From Escherichia coli (lineage in GTDB: Bacteria; Pseudomonadota; Gammaproteobacteria; Enterobacterales; Enterobacteriaceae): a stretch of 64,000 nt of DNA. Position 1 is the stretch's first letter, and each line of letters begins with the position of its first letter. The stretch is from assembly GCF_003018115.1 (NCBI RefSeq), contig NZ_CP027457.1. One strand, given 5' to 3'. The position numbers and the translations under genes were made by a program. Shown here piece after piece: positions 5,496 to 52,762 of the stretch. The notes below the pieces were generated by a model, which saw only the letters and a list, made by a program, of their open reading frames with translations, was not told where the DNA came from and searched no databases.

Positions 5496-6119
5496 CTAAC
5501 GTGTGACCGCGTTAAAAATGTTGTCTGCGATTGACTCTTCCTTGTGGCATTGCACCACCAGAGCGTCATACAGCGGCTTAACAGTGCGTGACCAGGTGGG
5601 TTGGGTAAGGTTTGGGATTAGCATCGTCACAGCGCGATATGCGGCGCTTGCTGGCATCCTTGAATAACCGACGCCTTTGCATCTTCCGCACTCTTTCTCG
5701 ACAACTCTCCCCCACTGCTCTGTTTTTGCTATATCAACCGCACGGCCTGTACCGTGGCAATCTCTGCATCTTGCGCCCGGCGTCGCGGCACTACGGCAAT
5801 AATCCGCATAAGCGAATGTTGCGAGCACTTGCAGCACCTTTGCCTTAGTATTTCCTTCAAGCTTTGCCACACCACGGTATTTCCCCGATACCTTGTGTGC
5901 AAATTGCATCAGATAGTTGATAGCCTTTTGTTTGTCGTTCTGGCTGAGTTCGTGCTTACCACAGAATGCAGCCATGCCGAATCCGGCTTGTGATTGCGCC
6001 ATCCCCATAGCAGCCATCACATCAGTACCGGAAAGAGAGTCAGAAGCCGTGGCCCGTGGTGAGTCGCTCATCATCGGGCTTTTTGGCGAATGAAATTTAG
6101 CTACGCTTTCGAGTCTCAT
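5496..6119 (-). CDS. Q: Late-gene antiterminator Q (lambda Q-type, 207 aa)
   Basis: 207-aa ORF with zinc-binding motif CRDCHGTG...CGRCKG, positioned immediately upstream of pR' and the lysis genes. Confidence 0.85.
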   Translation of the reverse strand: MRLESVAKFHSPKSPMMSDSPRATASDSLSGTDVMAAMGMAQSQAGFGMAAFCGKHELSQNDKQKAINYLMQFAHKVSGKYRGVAKLEGNTKAKVLQVLATFAYADYCRSAATPGARCRDCHGTGRAVDIAKTEQWGRVVEKECGRCKGVGYSRMPASAAYRAVTMLIPNLTQPTWSRTVKPLYDALVVQCHKEESIADNIFNAVTR

Positions 6120-9149: not shown

Positions 9150-10526
9150 TCATACGTCAGCCCCTTGTGCATATCGTCTGCCACGCGCAGCAGGTGCATT
9201 TGATGCTGTGCAAATCTGTCTGGCTTCATCCTGGTCACATGCAACAAAGTGTCCGTTACAGAACCGCTGGTAAACCGTACCAAGCGAGCCAAAACGGTTT
9301 TTCGTCACAATGATTTCAGCAAATGGTGCGGCGCTACTGTTCTCGTCATATACCGCTTCCCGATAGAGCATGATGATTGAGTCTGCGTCCTGCTCAATGC
9401 TTCCTGAATCACGCAAATCTGCGTTTGTCGGGCGTTTGTTTGGTCGCTTCTCAACATCGCGCGAAAGCTGACTCAGGGAGATAACAGGCGTTTTCAGGTC
9501 TTTCGCCATCGCCTTCAGGCTTCCGGAGATGTGAGCAATTGCAAGGTCGTTGCGGTCTGCTTTCGGCTTCTCAATCAGGCCAAGATAATCCGCCATGATG
9601 AGTGACAGGTTTGGATTTTCCTGTTTGTGCCGTTCTGCGATTGAGCGTATTTCTTCGACCGATAAACGCGAGGCATCGACTACCCATACATCCAAATCTG
9701 CGAGCTGACTCATGCCGTTAGCAACACGCGCCCAGCCTTCGTCATCCATCGATGCAGGATTTCGCAGTACGCTAACCGACATCCTCCCGGCGTTGGCAAT
9801 GCTTCGCTCTGCAATCTGCAATGCGCTCATTTCCATTGAGAAAATCAATACCCCGCGCCGGACGTCAGAACCAGGAATAACGCGGCTTGCAACGCCTTCG
9901 GCAATCTTCAGCGCCAGTTCGGTTTTCCCCATACCAGGACGAGCGGCGATAATCACCAGGTCTTCCGCGTTCATCCCTCCGGTGATAGCGTCAAGTTCTT
10001 CGATTCCGGTCTTCAGGGTATCTGACTCTTCTCCGTTCCTCAGACGCCTGTCAAGCGTGTCAGTGTAGTCGGTGATGATTTCCCCTAACCGTACCGGTTT
10101 AACCTCGTCACGGGGCTTTCTGATGGCTGAAAGACGCTTTACAAGCTCATCCATCGCCTGACTAGATGCGTCGATGGTTCCGCTCTGAATTGGTTCACGC
10201 ATTTCGTCCATGATTTCCAGCACCAGACGGCGGTGATAGTTATCCGCGACCATTCCGGCATATCCCTTCAGGTTTGCGGCACTCGGGCAGTTTTTGCTGG
10301 TCATCAGGATTGACGTGAAATGCTCCTCTCCGCACGCCTCGGCAACCATCAGCGCGTCGATTAGGTTTCTGTTTCGCGCCTGCTTGCGGATAACCTCGAA
10401 GGCTTTCCGGTAGAGCGGAATTGAAAACGCTTCCGGCTCAAGCGTTGCCAGAACGTCACTGGCGGTTGGAGTTAATCCACCAATCAGCAGGCCACCGATA
10501 ACGCTCGCTTCGATATCCTGTCTCAT
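9150..10526 (-). CDS. Replicative DNA helicase, DnaB family (P22 gene 12-like; replaces lambda P)
   Basis: 458-aa ORF with Walker A (GMGKT) and DnaB-type motifs; start overlaps O stop. Confidence 0.85.
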
Positions 10527-11344
10527 GCAATCCCCCTGTCTGCAAACTTCCCTTCCCGAACTCCCGTTAACGAGTCTTCCCTCAGCAGGTAATCAAAATC
10601 AGCCGTCCAGCCCGTGTCGTTGTCTCCGAAGTAAAACGGCTTGGCCTGATGCACAAACGCCCTGACATACGCTCTGAAACCGTCCACATTTGGCGTTTTC
10701 AGTTGCGGGATGATTTTCTTCAGGCGGCGTTTGCGTTTCTCGTTGACCGCAACAGCGTGTGGCAGTCTGTCACCGACTTCGGTGTTGTAGGCGTTCAGGA
10801 AGGATTCGTAGTCGATTCGTTCTGCCTTGCGACGTTCAGGTTTAACCTGCCCATCGCCACCCCCGTTAGGGGGTAAGGGGGTATTTGTATTTATTGTCTT
10901 TTGTATATTGTCTTTTGTGTTTAGCTGACTTGGCTTATACCCATTAGCCGACTTGGCTAATGTTTTATTAGCTGTTTTAGCTAATGTTAAGCTGTCATGG
11001 CTAATCCACTGAGAAACCACCTTGTTCACTCCGATTTTCACGCCATCAGCAATGAGGAATTTACGCTCGATAAGCTGGCGCTTGGCAGCGCAAACATGAG
11101 TGTGATGAATACCTGTCATGGCTGCTATCTGCGTGTTTGTGAGTCGATCCATCGGCTTATTGAATCCGTATGTCTTGCGCATGATAGCGAGCATCACCTT
11201 CATCTGCCGGACGGTTAAATCAGCCATCAGCAGACTGTCGGTAATCTCGTTAGCAACGCGCATGAAACCATCTTCGGTATCTGCCACGCGATGCTCCACG
11301 ACCTCCAGTTGAGGCCTGTAATCAGCTAACTTAACGACGCCCAT
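10523..11344 (-). CDS. O: Replication initiator O-like protein (contains the origin iterons)
   Basis: 273-aa ORF with HTH N-terminal domain; iterons and AT-rich tract lie within the coding sequence as in lambda O / P22 gene 18. Confidence 0.75.
10880..11007. repeat. Phage replication origin: four ~19-bp iterons (TTAGCYGNYTTGGCTAAT-like) at about 10921, 10944, 10968 and 10987, plus adjacent AT-rich tract (10880-10920)
   Basis: Direct repeats TTAGCTGACTTGGCTTATA / TTAGCCGACTTGGCTAATG / TTAGCTGTTTTAGCTAATG / TTAAGCTGTCATGGCTAATCC read from the sequence. Confidence 0.7.
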
Positions 11345-11502
11345 GTTTCACTCCTGCTTTGGCTAGTCTGTAAACACCAACAAGGCGCTCTGCGAACGCC
11401 CTGTTATTTGCTGCGGCTACCACTAATCCCTCAGGTGAATCAGGGTGTCGAATCTCTTCTTTTTCCTGGTATTTCTTACGACGTTTTGTCATAATTACTC
11501 CT

Positions 11503-11566
11503 GTGGATTGATCCAGTCTTTCTACATCAGGCCTCGAAGAATTCGCCGTTCTTCGGGGCTTTTTCT
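11503..11566 (+). ncRNA. oop: Putative OOP-like antisense RNA overlapping the 3' end of cII
   Basis: Plus-strand hairpin CGAAGAA-TTCGCCG-TTCTTCG followed by a T-run (11535-11566) inside the cII 3' end; upstream GTGGATTGATCCAGTC resembles the lambda oop 5' end. Confidence 0.45.
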
Positions 11567-11805
11567 TTTGTCAGCATTCTGGCTACTTTCTTAGCCAGTT
11601 CCGCCAACTCCTCGTCTTCAACACCCCATTCAAGAACAGCCAGAAGCATTCCCATTTTTGGGATGAAGCTGTCTTTCCATCGCGAAATTTGCGATTCATT
11701 AATTCCTAACGCGTCGGCAACCTTTCGCTGGCCACGTACAGCAATTCGATTCAGGATGTTGCTTGTAATTGCATTCGCTTTCTTGCGAGTACTTGTAAGT
11801 TCCAT
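11527..11805 (-). CDS. cII: CII-like transcriptional activator
   Basis: From internal ATG at 11805: MELTSTRKKANAITSNILNRIAVRGQRKVADALGINESQISRWKDSFIPKMGMLLAVLEWGV, lambda CII-like. Confidence 0.75.
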   Translation of the reverse strand: MELTSTRKKANAITSNILNRIAVRGQRKVADALGINESQISRWKDSFIPKMGMLLAVLEWGVEDEELAELAKKVARMLTKEKAPKNGEFFEA

Positions 11806-11913: not shown

Positions 11914-12114
11914 CTATTTGTTTTTCTTGTTGCTTGGGAAAGGACGAACTTCCTCTCCAATCACACTGCCATCAGGCTTTACCGTAACCATGATGTTACG
12001 GCCTGCCAGAATGGCCTTGCTGATAGCGCACTGGATTACACCAAAGTCACTGGCTGCTTTAGCCTGTCCATGGATTTTGGCGTAATCGGCAAGTGTCATT
12101 CGAATCATATGCAC
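11914..12114 (-). CDS. cro: Cro-like repressor
   Basis: 66-aa [67 protein letters not shown], lambda Cro-like, divergent from cI. Confidence 0.8.
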
Positions 12115-12214: not shown

Positions 12215-12931
12215 ATGGAAAATAAAAAATCACTGACGACAGAACAGCTCGAAGACGCTAAGCGGCTTAAGGCTTTGTATGAGTCAAAAAAGAAAGAATT
12301 GGGAATAACCCAATACTCAATCGCTGATGAACTGGGTATCACCCAAGGAGCGGTAGGGCATTATCTTAATGGCAGAAACGCGCTAAACGTTGAGGTCGCA
12401 TCTGGTTTTGCACGTTTGTTGCAAGTCTCAATTGCTGATTTTAGCCAGTCAATTGCTGCCAAGGTTGCAGAACAGGCAGAAAGCCTTAAGAGCGATGCCA
12501 ACGTAAGGTATGCAGGGGAATACAGAGCAGGAAAGAGGTATCCGGTGTTAAGCAGTATCCAGGCTGGCTCGTGGTGTGAAGCATGCGAACCATACACCAT
12601 TAAAGACATAGATGTTTGGCTTGAGTCTGACGCGCATATTCAAGGTAATGCGTTCTGGCTTAAAGTGGAAGGTGATTCAATGACGGCACCGGTTGGGTTA
12701 AGCATTCCAGAGGGAACATTCGTTCTTTTCGATACCGGAAGGGAGGCGATCAACGGCAGCTTGGTCATAGCAAAACTTTCTGACTCTAACGAAGCAACAT
12801 TCAAGAAGCTGATAATCGACGGCGGAAATAAATACCTCAAGGGACTTAATCCTGCATGGCCTCTCGTGCCAATCAATGGAAACTGCAAGATTATAGGCGT
12901 TGCAATTGAGACAAAACTAAGGCTGGTTTGA
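12215..12931 (+). CDS. cI: CI-type prophage repressor (HTH plus LexA/S24-like C-terminal domain)
   Basis: 238-aa ORF; N-terminus MENKKSLTTEQLEDAKRLKALYESKKKELGITQYSIADELGITQGAVG parallels lambda CI; C-terminus AFWLKVEGDSMTAP...FKKLI is the autocleavage domain. Confidence 0.85.
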   Translation: MENKKSLTTEQLEDAKRLKALYESKKKELGITQYSIADELGITQGAVGHYLNGRNALNVEVASGFARLLQVSIADFSQSIAAKVAEQAESLKSDANVRYAGEYRAGKRYPVLSSIQAGSWCEACEPYTIKDIDVWLESDAHIQGNAFWLKVEGDSMTAPVGLSIPEGTFVLFDTGREAINGSLVIAKLSDSNEATFKKLIIDGGNKYLKGLNPAWPLVPINGNCKIIGVAIETKLRLV

Positions 12932-20762: not shown

Positions 20763-20776
20763 TGGCGGTTTTTTCT
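20753..20776 (+). terminator. Intrinsic terminator upstream of xis
   Basis: GCCGCC-TGAT-GGCGG hairpin followed by TTTTTTCTT. Confidence 0.65.
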
Positions 20777-20801
20777 TGCGTGTAATTGCGGAGACTTTGC
20801 G

Positions 20802-21020
20802 ATGTACTTGACACTTCAGGAGTGGAACGCACGCCAGCGACGCCCAAGAAGCCTTGAAACAGTTCGTCGATGGGTGCGCGAATGCAGGATATTCCCACCA
20901 CCGGTTAAGGATGGAAGAGAGTATCTGTTCCACGAATCAGCGGTAAAGGTTGACTTAAATCGACCAGTAACAGGTAGCCTTTTGAAGAGGATCAGAAATG
21001 GGAAGAAGGCGAAGTCATGA
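20802..21020 (+). CDS. xis: Excisionase (lambda Xis-type)
   Basis: 72-aa ORF MYLTLQEWNARQRRPRSLETVRRWVRECRIFPPPVKDGREYLFHESAVKV..., recognised as lambda Xis; overlaps int start. Confidence 0.85.
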   Translation: MYLTLQEWNARQRRPRSLETVRRWVRECRIFPPPVKDGREYLFHESAVKVDLNRPVTGSLLKRIRNGKKAKS

Positions 21021-22068
21021 GCGCCGGGATTTACCCCCTAACCTTTATATAAGAAACAATGGATATTACTGCTACAGGGACCCAAGGACGGGTAAAGAGT
21101 TCGGATTAGGCAGAGACAGGAGGATAGCAATCACTGAAGCTATACAGGCCAACATTGAGTTATTTTCAGGACACAAACACAAGCCTCTGACAGCGAGAAT
21201 CAACAGTGATAATTCTGTTACGTTACATTCATGGCTTGATCGCTACGAAAAAATCCTCGCCAGCAGAGGAATCAAGCAGAAGACACTCATAAATTACATG
21301 AGCAAAATTAAAGCAATAAGGAGGGGGCTGCCTGATGTTCCACTTGAAGACATCACCACAAAAGAAATTGCGGCAATGCTCAATGGATACATAGACGAGG
21401 GCAAGGCGGCATCAGCCAAGTTAATCAGATCAACACTGAGCGATGCATTCCGAGAGGCTATAGCTGAAGGCCATATAACAACAAACCCGGTCGCTGCTAC
21501 TCGCGCAGCAAAATCAGAGGTAAGGAGATCAAGGCTTACGGCTGACGAATACCTGAAAATTTATCAAGCAGCAGAATCATCACCATGTTGGTTAAGACTT
21601 GCAATGGAACTGGCTGTTGTTACCGGACAGCGAGTTGGTGATTTATGCGAAATGAAGTGGTCTGATATCGTAGATGGATATCTTTATGTCGAGCAAAGCA
21701 AAACAGGCGTAAAAATTGCCATCCCAACAGCATTGCATGTTGATGCTCTCGGAATATCAATGAAGGAAACACTTGATAAATGCAAAGAGATTCTTGGCGG
21801 AGAAACCATAATTGCATCTACTCGTCGTGAACCGCTTTCATCCGGCACAGTATCAAGGTATTTTATGCGCGCACGAAAAGCATCAGGTCTTTCCTTCGAA
21901 GGGGATCCGCCTACCTTTCACGAGTTGCGCAGTTTGTCTGCAAGACTCTATGAGAAGCAGATAAGCGATAAGTTTGCTCAACATCTTCTCGGGCATAAGT
22001 CGGACACCATGGCATCACAGTATCGTGATGACAGAGGCAGGGAGTGGGACAAAATTGAAATCAAATAA
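20998..22068 (+). CDS. int: Tyrosine integrase (lambda Int-type, 356 aa)
   Basis: 356-aa ORF MGRRRSHERRDLPPNLYIRNNGYYCYRDPRTGKEFGLGRDRR..., recognised as lambda Int; transcribed toward the att junction. Confidence 0.9.
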   Translation: MGRRRSHERRDLPPNLYIRNNGYYCYRDPRTGKEFGLGRDRRIAITEAIQANIELFSGHKHKPLTARINSDNSVTLHSWLDRYEKILASRGIKQKTLINYMSKIKAIRRGLPDVPLEDITTKEIAAMLNGYIDEGKAASAKLIRSTLSDAFREAIAEGHITTNPVAATRAAKSEVRRSRLTADEYLKIYQAAESSPCWLRLAMELAVVTGQRVGDLCEMKWSDIVDGYLYVEQSKTGVKIAIPTALHVDALGISMKETLDKCKEILGGETIIASTRREPLSSGTVSRYFMRARKASGLSFEGDPPTFHELRSLSARLYEKQISDKFAQHLLGHKSDTMASQYRDDRGREWDKIEIK

Positions 22069-22202: not shown

Positions 22203-23486
22203 GTGAACACATTTTCAGTTTCCCGTCTGGCGCTGGCATTGGCTTTTGGCGTGACGCTGACCGCCTGTAGCTCAACACCACCCGATCAACGTCCTTCTGA
22301 TCAAACTGCGCCTGGTACCTCTTCTCGCCCGATTCTGTCGGCAAAAGAAGCGCAGAATTTCGATGCTCAACACTATTATGCATCCCTGACACCAGGTGCT
22401 GCAGCGTGGAATCCGTCCCCGATAACCCTGCCTGCGCAACCTGACTTTGTTGTCGGCCCGGCGGGTACTCAAGGTGTAACGCATACCACGATTCAGGCGG
22501 CGGTAGATGCGGCAATTATCAAGCGCACCAACAAGCGCCAGTATATTGCCGTGATGCCTGGTGAGTATCAGGGAACGGTGTATGTCCCTGCTGCTCCAGG
22601 TGGAATTACTCTGTACGGTACAGGTGAAAAACCGATTGATGTGAAGATTGGGCTTTCCCTTGATGGGGGCATGAGCCCTGCCGACTGGCGTCACGACGTC
22701 AACCCGCGCGGCAAATATATGCCAGGTAAACCAGCGTGGTATATGTACGATAGCTGCCAGCGCAAACGCAGCGACAGTATCGGTGTTCTGTGTTCTGCGG
22801 TCTTCTGGTCACAAAACAATGGCCTGCAACTGCAAAATCTGACCATCGAAAACACGCTGGGCGATAGCGTAGATGCAGGTAACCATCCGGCGGTGGCACT
22901 GCGTACTGACGGTGACCAGGTACAGATTAACAACGTTAACATTCTCGGTCGTCAGAACACCTTCTTTGTCACCAACAGCGGTGTGCAGAACCGTCTGGAA
23001 ACGAATCGTCAGCCGCGTACGCTGGTGACCAACAGCTACATTGAAGGGGATGTGGATATCGTTTCTGGTCGCGGCGCAGTGGTGTTCGATAACACCGAAT
23101 TCCGCGTGGTGAACTCACGTACTCAGCAAGAAGCGTATGTGTTTGCACCGGCTACGCTGTCCAACATCTATTACGGTTTCCTCGCCGTAAACAGCCGTTT
23201 CAATGCTTCCGGTGATGGCGTGGCGCAACTGGGCCGCTCGCTGGATGTTGATGCCAATACCAACGGTCAGGTGGTGATCCGTGATAGCGCCATCAACGAA
23301 GGTTTTAACACGGTTAAACCGTGGGGCGATGCGGTGATCTCTAATCGTCCGTTTGCGGGTAATACCGGCAGCGTTGACGATAGCGACGAAATACAGCGCA
23401 ATCTGAATGACACTAACTACAACCGCATGTGGGAATACAATAACCGCGGCGTGGGTAGCAAAGTGGTTGCAGAGGCGAAGAAGTAA
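22203..23486 (+). CDS. ybhC: Pectinesterase-like outer-membrane lipoprotein YbhC
   Basis: 427-aa ORF with lipoprotein signal (LTACSS); position adjacent to attB-lambda. Confidence 0.9.
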   Translation: MNTFSVSRLALALAFGVTLTACSSTPPDQRPSDQTAPGTSSRPILSAKEAQNFDAQHYYASLTPGAAAWNPSPITLPAQPDFVVGPAGTQGVTHTTIQAAVDAAIIKRTNKRQYIAVMPGEYQGTVYVPAAPGGITLYGTGEKPIDVKIGLSLDGGMSPADWRHDVNPRGKYMPGKPAWYMYDSCQRKRSDSIGVLCSAVFWSQNNGLQLQNLTIENTLGDSVDAGNHPAVALRTDGDQVQINNVNILGRQNTFFVTNSGVQNRLETNRQPRTLVTNSYIEGDVDIVSGRGAVVFDNTEFRVVNSRTQQEAYVFAPATLSNIYYGFLAVNSRFNASGDGVAQLGRSLDVDANTNGQVVIRDSAINEGFNTVKPWGDAVISNRPFAGNTGSVDDSDEIQRNLNDTNYNRMWEYNNRGVGSKVVAEAKK

Positions 23487-50071: not shown

Positions 50072-51364
50072 TCACAGATACGGCGACCAGGCAGGGAATT
50101 TGACCTGTCCATCAGTTGCCGGAAGACGCGCTTTGAAACGCCCATCTGTAGAAACCAAATTCAGCACGGATCCCATCCCCTGAGAAGAGCTGTAGATTAC
50201 CATAGTGCCGTTAGGTGCCAGACTTGGCGTTTCATCCAGGAACGTGGACGACAGAACTTGTACGCCTCCCGTTGCCAGATCTTGTTTGGCAATGTGCTGC
50301 TGCCCACCGTTGGAGCTGACCATTACCATAAATTTACCGTCGCTGCTGACATCCGCATCCTGGTTCTGCGAACCTTCCCAGGTAATACGTTGTGGCGCAC
50401 CGCCGTTGATATTCACTTTATAAACCTGTGGACGACCGGCCTGGTCAGAAGTAAATGCCAGGTTCTGGCTGTCCGGGAACCAGGTCGGTTCGGTATTGTT
50501 ACTGCGACCATCAGTCACCTGGCGGATCTGGCCAGAAGCCAAATCCATTACGTACAGGTTCAGGCTACCGGTTTTCGACAAGGCGAATGCCAGTTTGCTG
50601 CCGTCTGGCGAGAATGCAGGCGCACCGTTGTGACGCGGGAATGAAGCCACCTGACGTACAGCGCCATTTGCCAGCGTCTGAATAACCAGCGCGGAACGAC
50701 CGCTTTCGAAGGTCACATAAGCCAGTTTAGAACCGTCTGGTGACCACGCCGGGGACATCAGCGGCTGCGGTGAACGGTGAACGACAAACTGGTTGTAACC
50801 GTCATAGTCAGATACGCGCAATTCATACGGGAACTGACCGCCGTTGGTCTGAACAACGTAGGCAATACGGGTACGGAACGCACCTTTAATGCCGGTCAGT
50901 TTTTCAAACACTTCATCACTGGCGGTATGACCAGCATAACGCAGCCACTGCTTGTTCACTTTGTACGAGTTCTGAGCAAGTACAGTACCCGGTGCGCCGC
51001 CAGTGTCAACAAGTTGATAAGCAACATTGTAAGAACCATCCGGATTCGGAGTGACCTGACCGACAACTACAGCGTCAATGCCCAGTGCGGACCATGCAGC
51101 TGGTTGTACTTCCTGCGCACTACCCGGCTGCTGTGGCAGACGAGCGCGATCTAACGGATTAAATTTACCGCTGTTACGCAAGTCAGCAGCAACGATGCCG
51201 CCAATATCTTCAGGTGCCGCACCAGGCCCCGCCCACTGGAAAGGAACAACACCAATAGGACGACCGGAATCTACACCGCTGTCGATCACAATGCGGACTT
51301 CAGCATGCAGAACTGATGCCCACAGTATGAGAAAACCAAATGCTACTCGTAATGCCTGCTTCAT
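50072..51364 (-). CDS. tolB: Tol-Pal periplasmic beta-propeller protein
   Basis: About 430-aa [24 protein letters not shown]... Confidence 0.95.
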
Positions 51365-51496
51365 CATATCTCCCTTATCTGGACCGATGGCCCACGATAA
51401 TTTAGCAGAATGTTAACAAACTAAAATACACAAAACTACCAGAACCCCGTGGCAACCGGTGCCTGATGTTGACCGTCGGAACAGTCAACATCGCGA

Positions 51497-52762
51497 TTAC
51501 GGTTTGAAGTCCAATGGCGCGTTTTTGAACACTTCATATACTGCCTGGCTTGGTGGTTTCGGGATCTTCGCAAGTTTAGCTGCTGCCAACGCAGCCTGAC
51601 AAAGTGTGGGATCGCCACCTTCAGGTTTGATATCCAGTAACATGCCATCGGGTGCCAGTTTTATGCGCAGCGTACAGGTTTTGCCTGCATAGGACGATGC
51701 GTCATAGAACTTACTTTCGATAGCAGATTTAATCTGCCCGGCATAGTTATTGATATCGGCCCCTGATGCGCCATTGTTTTTAGTATTACCACTCCCGGCA
51801 GGCGAAGCATTGTTCCCTTTCGCCCCTCCCCCCGTTTTCGGTGCATTCTTACCAGAGCTTAGCTCACCGAAAATATCATCTGCCTCTGCGGCAGCTTTTG
51901 CTGCAGCGGCTTTTTCAGCTGCTGCTTTTGCAGCTGCCGCTTTTTTGTCTGCGGCGGCTTTTTCTGCCGCTGCTTTCTTATCAGCTGCTGCCTTTTCAGC
52001 AGCCGCTTTTTCTGCTGCTTTTTTGTCGGCTGCAGCTTTCTCTGCTGCCGCTTTCTTATCAGCTGCAGCCTTTTCAGCAGCCGCTTTCTTCTCAGCTTCT
52101 GCCTTGGCTTTTTCAGCAGCTTCAGTTGCCGCTTTCTTTCTTGCTTCAGCTGCAGCTGCTTCTGCCGCTTCCGCTTTCTTCTTCAGTGCCGCAGCGGCTG
52201 CCTCGGCTTTTTTCTGCGCTTCGGCTGCGGCTTTGGCGGCTTCTGCTTCTGCTTTTTTCTTCGCGTCTGCAGCCGCTTTCTTCGCTGCTTCTTCCGCAGC
52301 TTTAGCATCCGCTTCGGCCTTCGCTTTAGCATCTGCCGCCGCTTTCGCTGCCGCCTCTTCCGCTTGCTTCTGCTTTAACTCGGCCTGTTTTGCGGCTTCT
52401 TCAGCCTGCTTTTTCTGTTCCTGAGCAGCTAACCGCTCTTTCTCAAGTTGCTTCAGGCGTTCCTGTTCAGCCGCTTGTTTCTCACGCAGTTCTTCAGCAG
52501 CCTGCTGTTCCTTCATCTTGCGCTGCTCATCAGAACGCTTCGCGCTTGATTCCTGGCTTTGCATGCGTTTGTACTGCTCAACTACCGCACCTGAATCAAC
52601 CATGACAGCGTCGATGGACGAACCACCGCCGCCTCCAGCTGAAGCTTCTATATTCTCATCGAACGAACTCCAGATCAGCGCCGCAAATAAGATGACATGC
52701 AGCACTGCTGAAATAATTATCGCCCGCTTGAGCTTGTCGTTTTGTTCGGTTGCCTTTGACAC
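51497..52762 (-). CDS. tolA: Tol-Pal system protein TolA (Ala/Lys-rich repetitive domain II)
   Basis: 421-aa ORF with long A/K/E-rich helical repeat region. Confidence 0.95.
   Translation of the reverse strand: MSKATEQNDKLKRAIIISAVLHVILFAALIWSSFDENIEASAGGGGGSSIDAVMVDSGAVVEQYKRMQSQESSAKRSDEQRKMKEQQAAEELREKQAAEQERLKQLEKERLAAQEQKKQAEEAAKQAELKQKQAEEAAAKAAADAKAKAEADAKAAEEAAKKAAADAKKKAEAEAAKAAAEAQKKAEAAAAALKKKAEAAEAAAAEARKKAATEAAEKAKAEAEKKAAAEKAAADKKAAAEKAAADKKAAEKAAAEKAAADKKAAAEKAAADKKAAAAKAAAEKAAAAKAAAEADDIFGELSSGKNAPKTGGGAKGNNASPAGSGNTKNNGASGADINNYAGQIKSAIESKFYDASSYAGKTCTLRIKLAPDGMLLDIKPEGGDPTLCQAALAAAKLAKIPKPPSQAVYEVFKNAPLDFKP

Follow-up and report, generated by a model that had tools for sequence, protein, structure and literature searches.

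The stretch of DNA analyzed here (the window) comprises 64,000 nucleotides of the Escherichia coli contig NZ_CP027457.1, and from 9.1 to 12.9 kb it carries the immunity and replication region of a lambdoid phage in reverse orientation. The gene order, with cI on the plus strand followed by cro, cII, a small open reading frame (ORF), an O-like gene, and a DnaB-like helicase gene, all on the minus strand, is the lambdoid arrangement. The genes are as follows.

12215-12931, plus strand: cI-like repressor gene (HTH_3 and Peptidase_S24, Pfam search)
11914-12114, minus strand: cro (Pfam Cro, E = 4e-26)
11527-11805, minus strand: cII, 92 codons, the predicted antisense target (Pfam Phage_CII, PF05269, E = 1.2e-42, full length)
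11331-11492, minus strand: orf53, a 53-codon ORF, HK97 gp53-like, between cII and the O-like gene
10523-11344, minus strand: O-like initiator gene (Phage_rep_O)
9150-10526, minus strand: DnaB-type helicase gene (Pfam search)

The translation of the 53-codon ORF begins MTKRRKKYQEKEE, and a Pfam search with it (11331-11492, minus strand) gave zero hits; by position and annotation it is homologous to HK97 gp53 and Sf6 gene 42. In other phages the same place is occupied by the unrelated P22 orf48 (DUF2740), of 48 codons, whereas lambda has no small ORF there.

Farther along the window are genes that, from their translations, we take to be a lambda-type xis (20802-21020, plus strand) and int (20998-22068, plus strand), followed by an ORF at 22203-23486 that is presumably ybhC-like. 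About 30 kb beyond these lie what we assume, again from translations, to be tolB (50072-51367, minus strand) and tolA (51497-52762, minus strand). Because a lambda-type xis and int are followed by the ybhC-like ORF, the prophage appears to occupy the lambda attachment site in a segment of the E. coli chromosome. Matches to the CII-box motif were also present on the plus strand: TTGC-N6-TTGT at 11783-11796, in the 5' end of cII and thus in a pRE-like place; TTGC-N6-TTGC at 20776-20789, directly upstream of xis (pI-like); TTGC-N6-TTGC at 5819-5832, antisense within a Q-like ORF at 5496-6119 (paQ-like); and an additional TTGC-N6-TTGC at 11759-11772. CII-box motifs lie where lambda has its three CII-dependent promoters, with the limit that the motif count in the window is not above chance (4 found versus 5.7 expected). 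The pRE-like box is followed by CCATATGTAAGTATTTCC, presumably as in lambda.

The end of cII is overlapped, on the plus strand, by a set of elements that together resemble the lambda oop gene and its promoter, pO.

11467-11472, plus strand: candidate pO -35 hexamer TGGTAT, 17-nt spacer to the -10 element, from sequence
11483-11517, no strand assigned: 35-bp lambdoid box holding the pO -10 element, the Shine-Dalgarno (SD) sequence and ATG of the next gene, the OOP 5' end, and a LexA-box-like core
11487-11495, plus strand: pO extended -10 element, TGTCATAAT, with TG at 11487-11488 and CATAAT at 11490-11495
11501-11516, no strand assigned: LexA-box-like core CTGT-N8-CCAG, a sequence motif with the same half-sites and place as in lambda
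11503-11568, plus strand: predicted OOP RNA, ~63 to 66 nt, from lambda and P22 homology, covariance model, and fold
11503-11525, plus strand: stem-loop I (5 bp), GUGGA at 11503-11507 pairing with UCUAC at 11521-11525
11529-11569, plus strand: OOP intrinsic terminator, stem at 11529-11561 and T-run at 11560-11569, TTTTTCTTTT

An earlier note, made from the letters alone, had proposed an OOP-like antisense RNA here on the basis of a -10-like CATAAT, a start region resembling the lambda oop 5' end, and a plus-strand hairpin with a T-run inside the 3' end of minus-strand cII, and had suggested alignment with lambda oop as a check. The CATAAT is indeed at 11490-11495, where it is preceded by TG, and the alignment bears out the resemblance, with the window (TTTGTCATAATTACTCCTGTGGATTGATCCAGT) and lambda (TTTGTCATAATGACTCCTGTTGATAGATCCAGT) identical at 30 of 33 bases of a box that covers pO and the oop start and spans TTTGTCATAAT to CCAGT. 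A search of the window with a 29-base pattern for promoter and start gave this site alone, against 0.00 occurrences expected even when 3 mismatches are allowed. On the oop strand the window reads TGGTAT-17 nt-CATAAT-TACTCCT-GTGGATTGATCCAGT and lambda reads TTGAGT-17 nt-CATAAT-GACTCCT-GTTGATAGATCCAGT. The lambda RefSeq record does not contain oop in its annotation; we take the lambda +1 base to be the G of GTTGAT, and the box identity therefore points to a lambda-homologous start at G11503, exactly the base from which the note had begun its interval if that assumption about the lambda +1 holds. After the shared first 15 nt, the window and lambda RNAs diverge in sequence.

The CAT of CATAAT is the complement of the orf53 ATG, so that the SD sequence and start codon of orf53 are embedded in pO; the lambda pO -10 element likewise overlaps the start codon of the next gene, O. 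The candidate -35 hexamer TGGTAT is weak, matching TTGACA at 2 of 6 positions with the 17-nt spacer and at 3 of 6 with an 18-nt spacer. It corresponds in position to the TGGTCA with which the promoter feature of the P22-pbi record opens. The -35 elements of lambda (TTGAGT) and of P22 and BTP1 (TGGTCA) are both stronger, and because the upstream gene is orf53 here and orf48 in P22 and BTP1, promoter strength is not directly transferable from those phages. A strict sigma-70 scan called no promoter at pO, which we attribute to the poor -35 hexamer. Promoters with an extended -10 element (here TGn plus CATAAT) can function despite a weak -35 element, and in view of this element and the lambda homology we did not take the missing call as a refutation.

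From this start the RNA would run into the complement of cII. Its 5' end is placed at 11503 by lambda homology or at 11506 by homology with P22 small-RNA sequencing, and its 3' end at ~11564 to 11568, within the T-run, where the end given in the note (11566) also falls. The hairpin described there proved to be a stem at 11529-11561 (plus strand) with 14 pairs, of which 6 are G-C, and a 5-nt loop, followed in the terminator scan by TTTCTTTTGT, and the gene it invades is a full-length PF05269 cII. It was the strongest of 4 terminator sites in 1.6 kb, where shuffled sequences gave 1.7. Since the cII stop codon occupies 11527-11529 (minus strand), the hairpin falls in the stop codon and the last 11 codons of cII; the RNA as a whole overlaps the stop codon and roughly 13 codons before it (~39 nt) and also covers the 24-nt spacer between cII and orf53. 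Its perfect complementarity to the pR transcript, ~66 nt, follows automatically from its being a cis-antisense RNA, and ends just before the orf53 SD sequence (the complement of 11498-11502), as in lambda.

The fold of this RNA is far more stable than its composition predicts. The sequence at 11503-11568 folds at -27.2 kcal/mol (z = -5.18), with none of 200 shuffles as stable, and the predicted minimum free energy and centroid structures agree on two domains, a 5' stem-loop and the terminator. A recoding test, in which the amino acid sequence of the cII tail was held fixed while synonymous codons were resampled 5,000 times, placed the antisense hairpin above 99.3% of the recodings: the native hairpin has -20.0 kcal/mol, the recodings have a mean of -9.9 (standard deviation, 3.6), and only 0.65% of them are as stable, which argues that the hairpin is selected at the nucleotide level beyond the needs of the protein. 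When the region was scanned against Rfam at an E value of ≤10, no family named oop scored and all hits were below gathering thresholds. The best overlapping hits, ctRNA_p42d (19 bits; gathering threshold, 50) and sX13 (18 bits; gathering threshold, 50), were rejected as subthreshold matches driven by the terminator.

As a cis-antisense RNA in the lysis-lysogeny circuit of lambda, OOP is textbook knowledge, and the lambda and window elements are built to the same plan. In both, the RNA starts in the spacer after cII and terminates inside the cII 3' end, TG lies upstream of CATAAT, the CTGT-N8-CCAG core is present, and a 5' stem-loop precedes an intrinsic terminator. The overlap of lambda OOP with cII coding sequence is ~52 to 55 nt (~17 to 18 codons), longer than the ~39 nt (~13 codons) found here. 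Stem-loop I has 5 bp from the extreme 5' end in the window, whereas lambda has a longer GAUCCAG/CUGGAUU stem; the gene that follows is the 53-codon ORF rather than O, and the replication module, an O-like gene with a DnaB-type helicase gene, differs from lambda O/P. The window RNA is also shorter than that of lambda, at ~63 to 66 nt versus 77 nt (PMC12197685). A phage 434 record annotates an "oop RNA" ncRNA.

Closer relatives are found in P22 and BTP1. Small-RNA sequencing of P22-infected Salmonella detected a 63-nt species, P22C-oop, antisense to c1 (PMC13397905), whose reported sequence, GAUUGAUCCAGUCUUUCUACAUCAGGCCUCAAAACUGUUCCCGCAGUCUUGAGGCUUUUCUUU (PMC13397905), maps on the window from 11506 to 11568; PMC13397905 cites Backhaus and Petri (1984) for P22 oop. 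P22 oop shares with the window the short architecture, the first 33 nt, the position of the stop codon relative to the hairpin, and the T-run context. Its upper terminator stem differs in a compensated manner (AAACUG...CAGUCUU versus GAAGAAU...GUUCUUC in the window), its cII tail is KPQDCGNSFEA rather than KAPKNGEFFEA, its upstream gene is orf48, and its -35 hexamer is TGGTCA. The P22-pbi GenBank record (AF527608) has two features on the strand opposite c1, at positions homologous to those of the window: within the 3' end of c1, a terminator "similar to phage lambda," and at the start of orf48, a promoter assigned by "homology with phage lambda." OOP-BTP1 was annotated from RNA sequencing of Salmonella D23580 at the lambda-equivalent position (PMC7067206). 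The BTP1 RNA region departs from that of the window at a single base, with U in place of G11505, and has the same terminator; the region upstream of the BTP1 promoter is of the orf48 type, with TGG before CATAAT versus TGT here, and the BTP1 host is Salmonella. The supplements to the BTP1 paper yielded no OOP coordinates or transcription start, and the Sf6, HK620, and ES18 GenBank records held no oop annotation, the "promoter" features under the match in those records being pRE or pRM.

Scanning viral contigs for the pattern yielded 120 loci, in which the RNA bodies are of four types: a long lambda type, a long Stx/933W type, a short type with the sequence of the window, and a short type found in P22, ES18, and HK140. 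The short type with the window's sequence was the commonest variant. Phages Huey and ECP1 carry the 181 bp at 11440-11620 with 100% identity, as do E. coli genomes such as that of strain 042, and 957 of 5,426 complete E. coli genomes have a match. The variants that we compared came from Escherichia, Salmonella, Erwinia, Klebsiella, Cronobacter, Enterobacter, and Yersinia phages and a virus from bat feces, and every one of them retains a G+C-rich hairpin followed by a U-run, located right after the complement of the cII stop codon in the short types and deeper inside cII in the long types. Most variants, among them lambda and the Stx type, also show a separate 5' stem-loop in their folds.

Within the short type, the base of the terminator stem, GCCUC/GGGGC, is invariant and encodes the conserved ...FEA* and KAP residues. 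Above it, at least 5 stem positions change on both sides among the window, P22, Erwinia EhrS49, and Klebsiella GZ7, giving such alternatives as GAAGAAU/GUUCUUC, AAACUG/CAGUCUU, and AAGUGU/GCACUUU, and the encoded cII tails vary as well (KAPKNGEFFEA, KPQDCGNSFEA, KAPSCANSFEA, KAPSAGTLEA, and KAPNAVTFEA). In an alignment of 14 variants, 98.6% of the cells in stem-loop I are paired, with one pair changing from G-C to A-U on both sides and two pairs showing changes on one side. The terminator helix is only 78.6% paired in the column-wise covariance model alignment, with a high +1 slide, a count depressed because the P22-type hairpins lie one base out of register (a 6-nt versus a 5-nt loop, 4 versus 5 T residues) in an alignment that is ungapped; we therefore judged terminator conservation by folding each sequence and comparing pair lists, which is better evidence than column counts. 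A covariance model of the short type scored the window at 100.2 bits (E = 1e-23), P22 at 84 bits, and diverged relatives at 22 to 85 bits. Its second match in the window, at 51415-51489 (minus strand; 20.8 bits; E = 0.002), is a hairpin between tolA and tolB that we judged to be a chance hit.

Two of the Klebsiella phages, RCIP0034 and GZ7, depart from this picture in their cII genes. At 301-501 of the RCIP0034 locus and 528-728 of the GZ7 locus, the annotated cII has only 66 codons and stops considerably upstream of the OOP-like hairpin; in RCIP0034, moreover, tblastn gave a match in two pieces. This suggests that cII in these phages is frameshifted or truncated, in which case the oop-like element would lie beyond the annotated stop.

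The 35-bp box recurs at 100% identity in lambdoid phages, those of the Stx type among them, with nonmatching flanks. Four types of downstream gene (orf53-like, beginning MTKRRKKY; orf48-like, MTKQLSPY; lambda O-like, MTNTAKIL; and a type beginning MTYENDKF) and four OOP/cII types are present in all combinations among 126 loci, so the box marks a recombination boundary between a cII module and a replication module. Judged from these arrangements, the 35-bp box acts as a mosaic joint between the two modules, in agreement with the Sf6 GenBank record, where the conserved box is annotated as "bsq5; boundary sequence." The box also contains the LexA-box-like CTGT-N8-CCAG, which occurs in the window at a chance rate (2 found versus 1.66 expected); a LexA site has been reported within lambda oop-pO (PMC5869508).

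Taken as a whole, position, strand, promoter box, start, and terminator match lambda oop, in support of the reading advanced in the earlier note, and we consider it very probable that this interval is the gene for a short, P22-type OOP antisense RNA belonging to a lambdoid prophage. It is scarcely credible that the cII coding sequence gave rise to the hairpin and T-run by chance. The tail KAPKNGEFFEA is biased toward self-complementarity, as the average of -9.9 kcal/mol among recodings attests, but so few recodings (0.65%) reach the native stability, and the fold lies so far from its shuffles (z = -5.2), that coding alone accounts poorly for it, and relatives with different peptide tails show compensatory changes. 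It is also very unlikely, if less so, that the box is kept only as a ribosome binding site, start codon, and recombination linker, with pO too weak to act and the hairpin serving mRNA 3' stability or cII tail coding. The poor -35 hexamer and the silent promoter scan fit such an account, as does the nature of the box, which is demonstrably a mosaic joint, corresponds to the Sf6 "boundary sequence," and holds the orf53 SD sequence and ATG. It is opposed by the textbook ability of an extended -10 element to offset a weak -35 element and by the production of the RNA in phages with the same -10 element and RNA body. Moreover, the combination of a hairpin with a U-run exists solely on the antisense strand, no U residues following the hairpin on the cII mRNA strand, and is kept across genera while the peptide changes, as expected if the need is for a terminator.

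The more serious competitor, a possible but somewhat unlikely one, concerns what the element is for: its main job may be that of a promoter, with pO, convergent with pR, tuning read-through into the O-like and helicase genes and hence replication, and with the RNA mostly a by-product. This was proposed for lambda, in which a mutation of the pO -10 element lowers lambda plasmid copy number, raised levels of oop RNA barely affect that number, and reduced pO activity leads to more pR transcription beyond pO (PMC3985674). The geometry is that of lambda as well, pO lying where the gene that follows cII begins and pointing toward pR. Such a role is nevertheless compatible with an antisense role and, if it were the only one, would leave the compensatory upkeep of the 5' stem-loop unexplained; the replication module here, an O-like gene with a DnaB-type helicase gene, is also unlike lambda O/P. 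A further departure from the lambda scheme is that the short P22-type OOP might not be merely a trimmed lambda OOP. Its chief role could instead be that of an SOS-gated or interference element associated with the joint, or it could act at a step other than the RNase III route. The short type shares with lambda only the 15-nt 5' box, which coincides with the LexA-box-like core and the mosaic joint, and has a body of its own that covers only about the last 13 cII codons; the 5' box could also be kept because it has to work with whichever replication module recombination sets beside it. Even so, we regard this reading as improbable.

For the preferred reading, that of an OOP antisense RNA, we infer from the close relatives P22 and BTP1 that the RNA is made in this prophage, and its mode of action is most likely that of lambda, in which RNase III cleaves the duplex formed by OOP and the pR transcript, cII expression drops, and overexpression favors lysis (PMC5869508, PMC2327240, PMC12197685). 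In this model, RNA polymerase would start at pO, with its extended -10 and weak -35 elements, at or near G11503, and transcribe the plus strand against the pR-cro-cII-orf53-O operon until it stops at the intrinsic terminator inside the last cII codons, releasing an RNA of ~63 to 66 nt. That RNA would pair perfectly with the pR transcript from the 24-nt spacer between cII and orf53 through the stop codon and some 13 terminal codons of cII, and the OOP-mRNA duplex would be cut by RNase III, as in lambda. Degradation of the cII part of the message would lower CII synthesis and tilt the decision toward lytic growth, and transcription from pO, converging on that from pR, may in addition reduce read-through from pR into the replication genes, as has been suggested for lambda. 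The note's prediction that the RNA controls cII mRNA stability is an extrapolation from lambda, where such control goes back to Krinke and Wulff (1987, 1990; cited in PMC5869508 and PMC2327240). How much OOP matters physiologically in lambda itself is debated; its weight is modest in some assays, and mutating OOP failed to bring back CII activity after SOS induction (PMC2327240).

A P22-type OOP has already been described, annotated, and detected, so that the element in this prophage is not novel and has little import beyond correct annotation. Most genome records, including those of RefSeq E. coli prophages, leave OOP unannotated, and since no Rfam family scored at the locus, automated pipelines likely miss it; a covariance model like the one built here for the short type would recover it.
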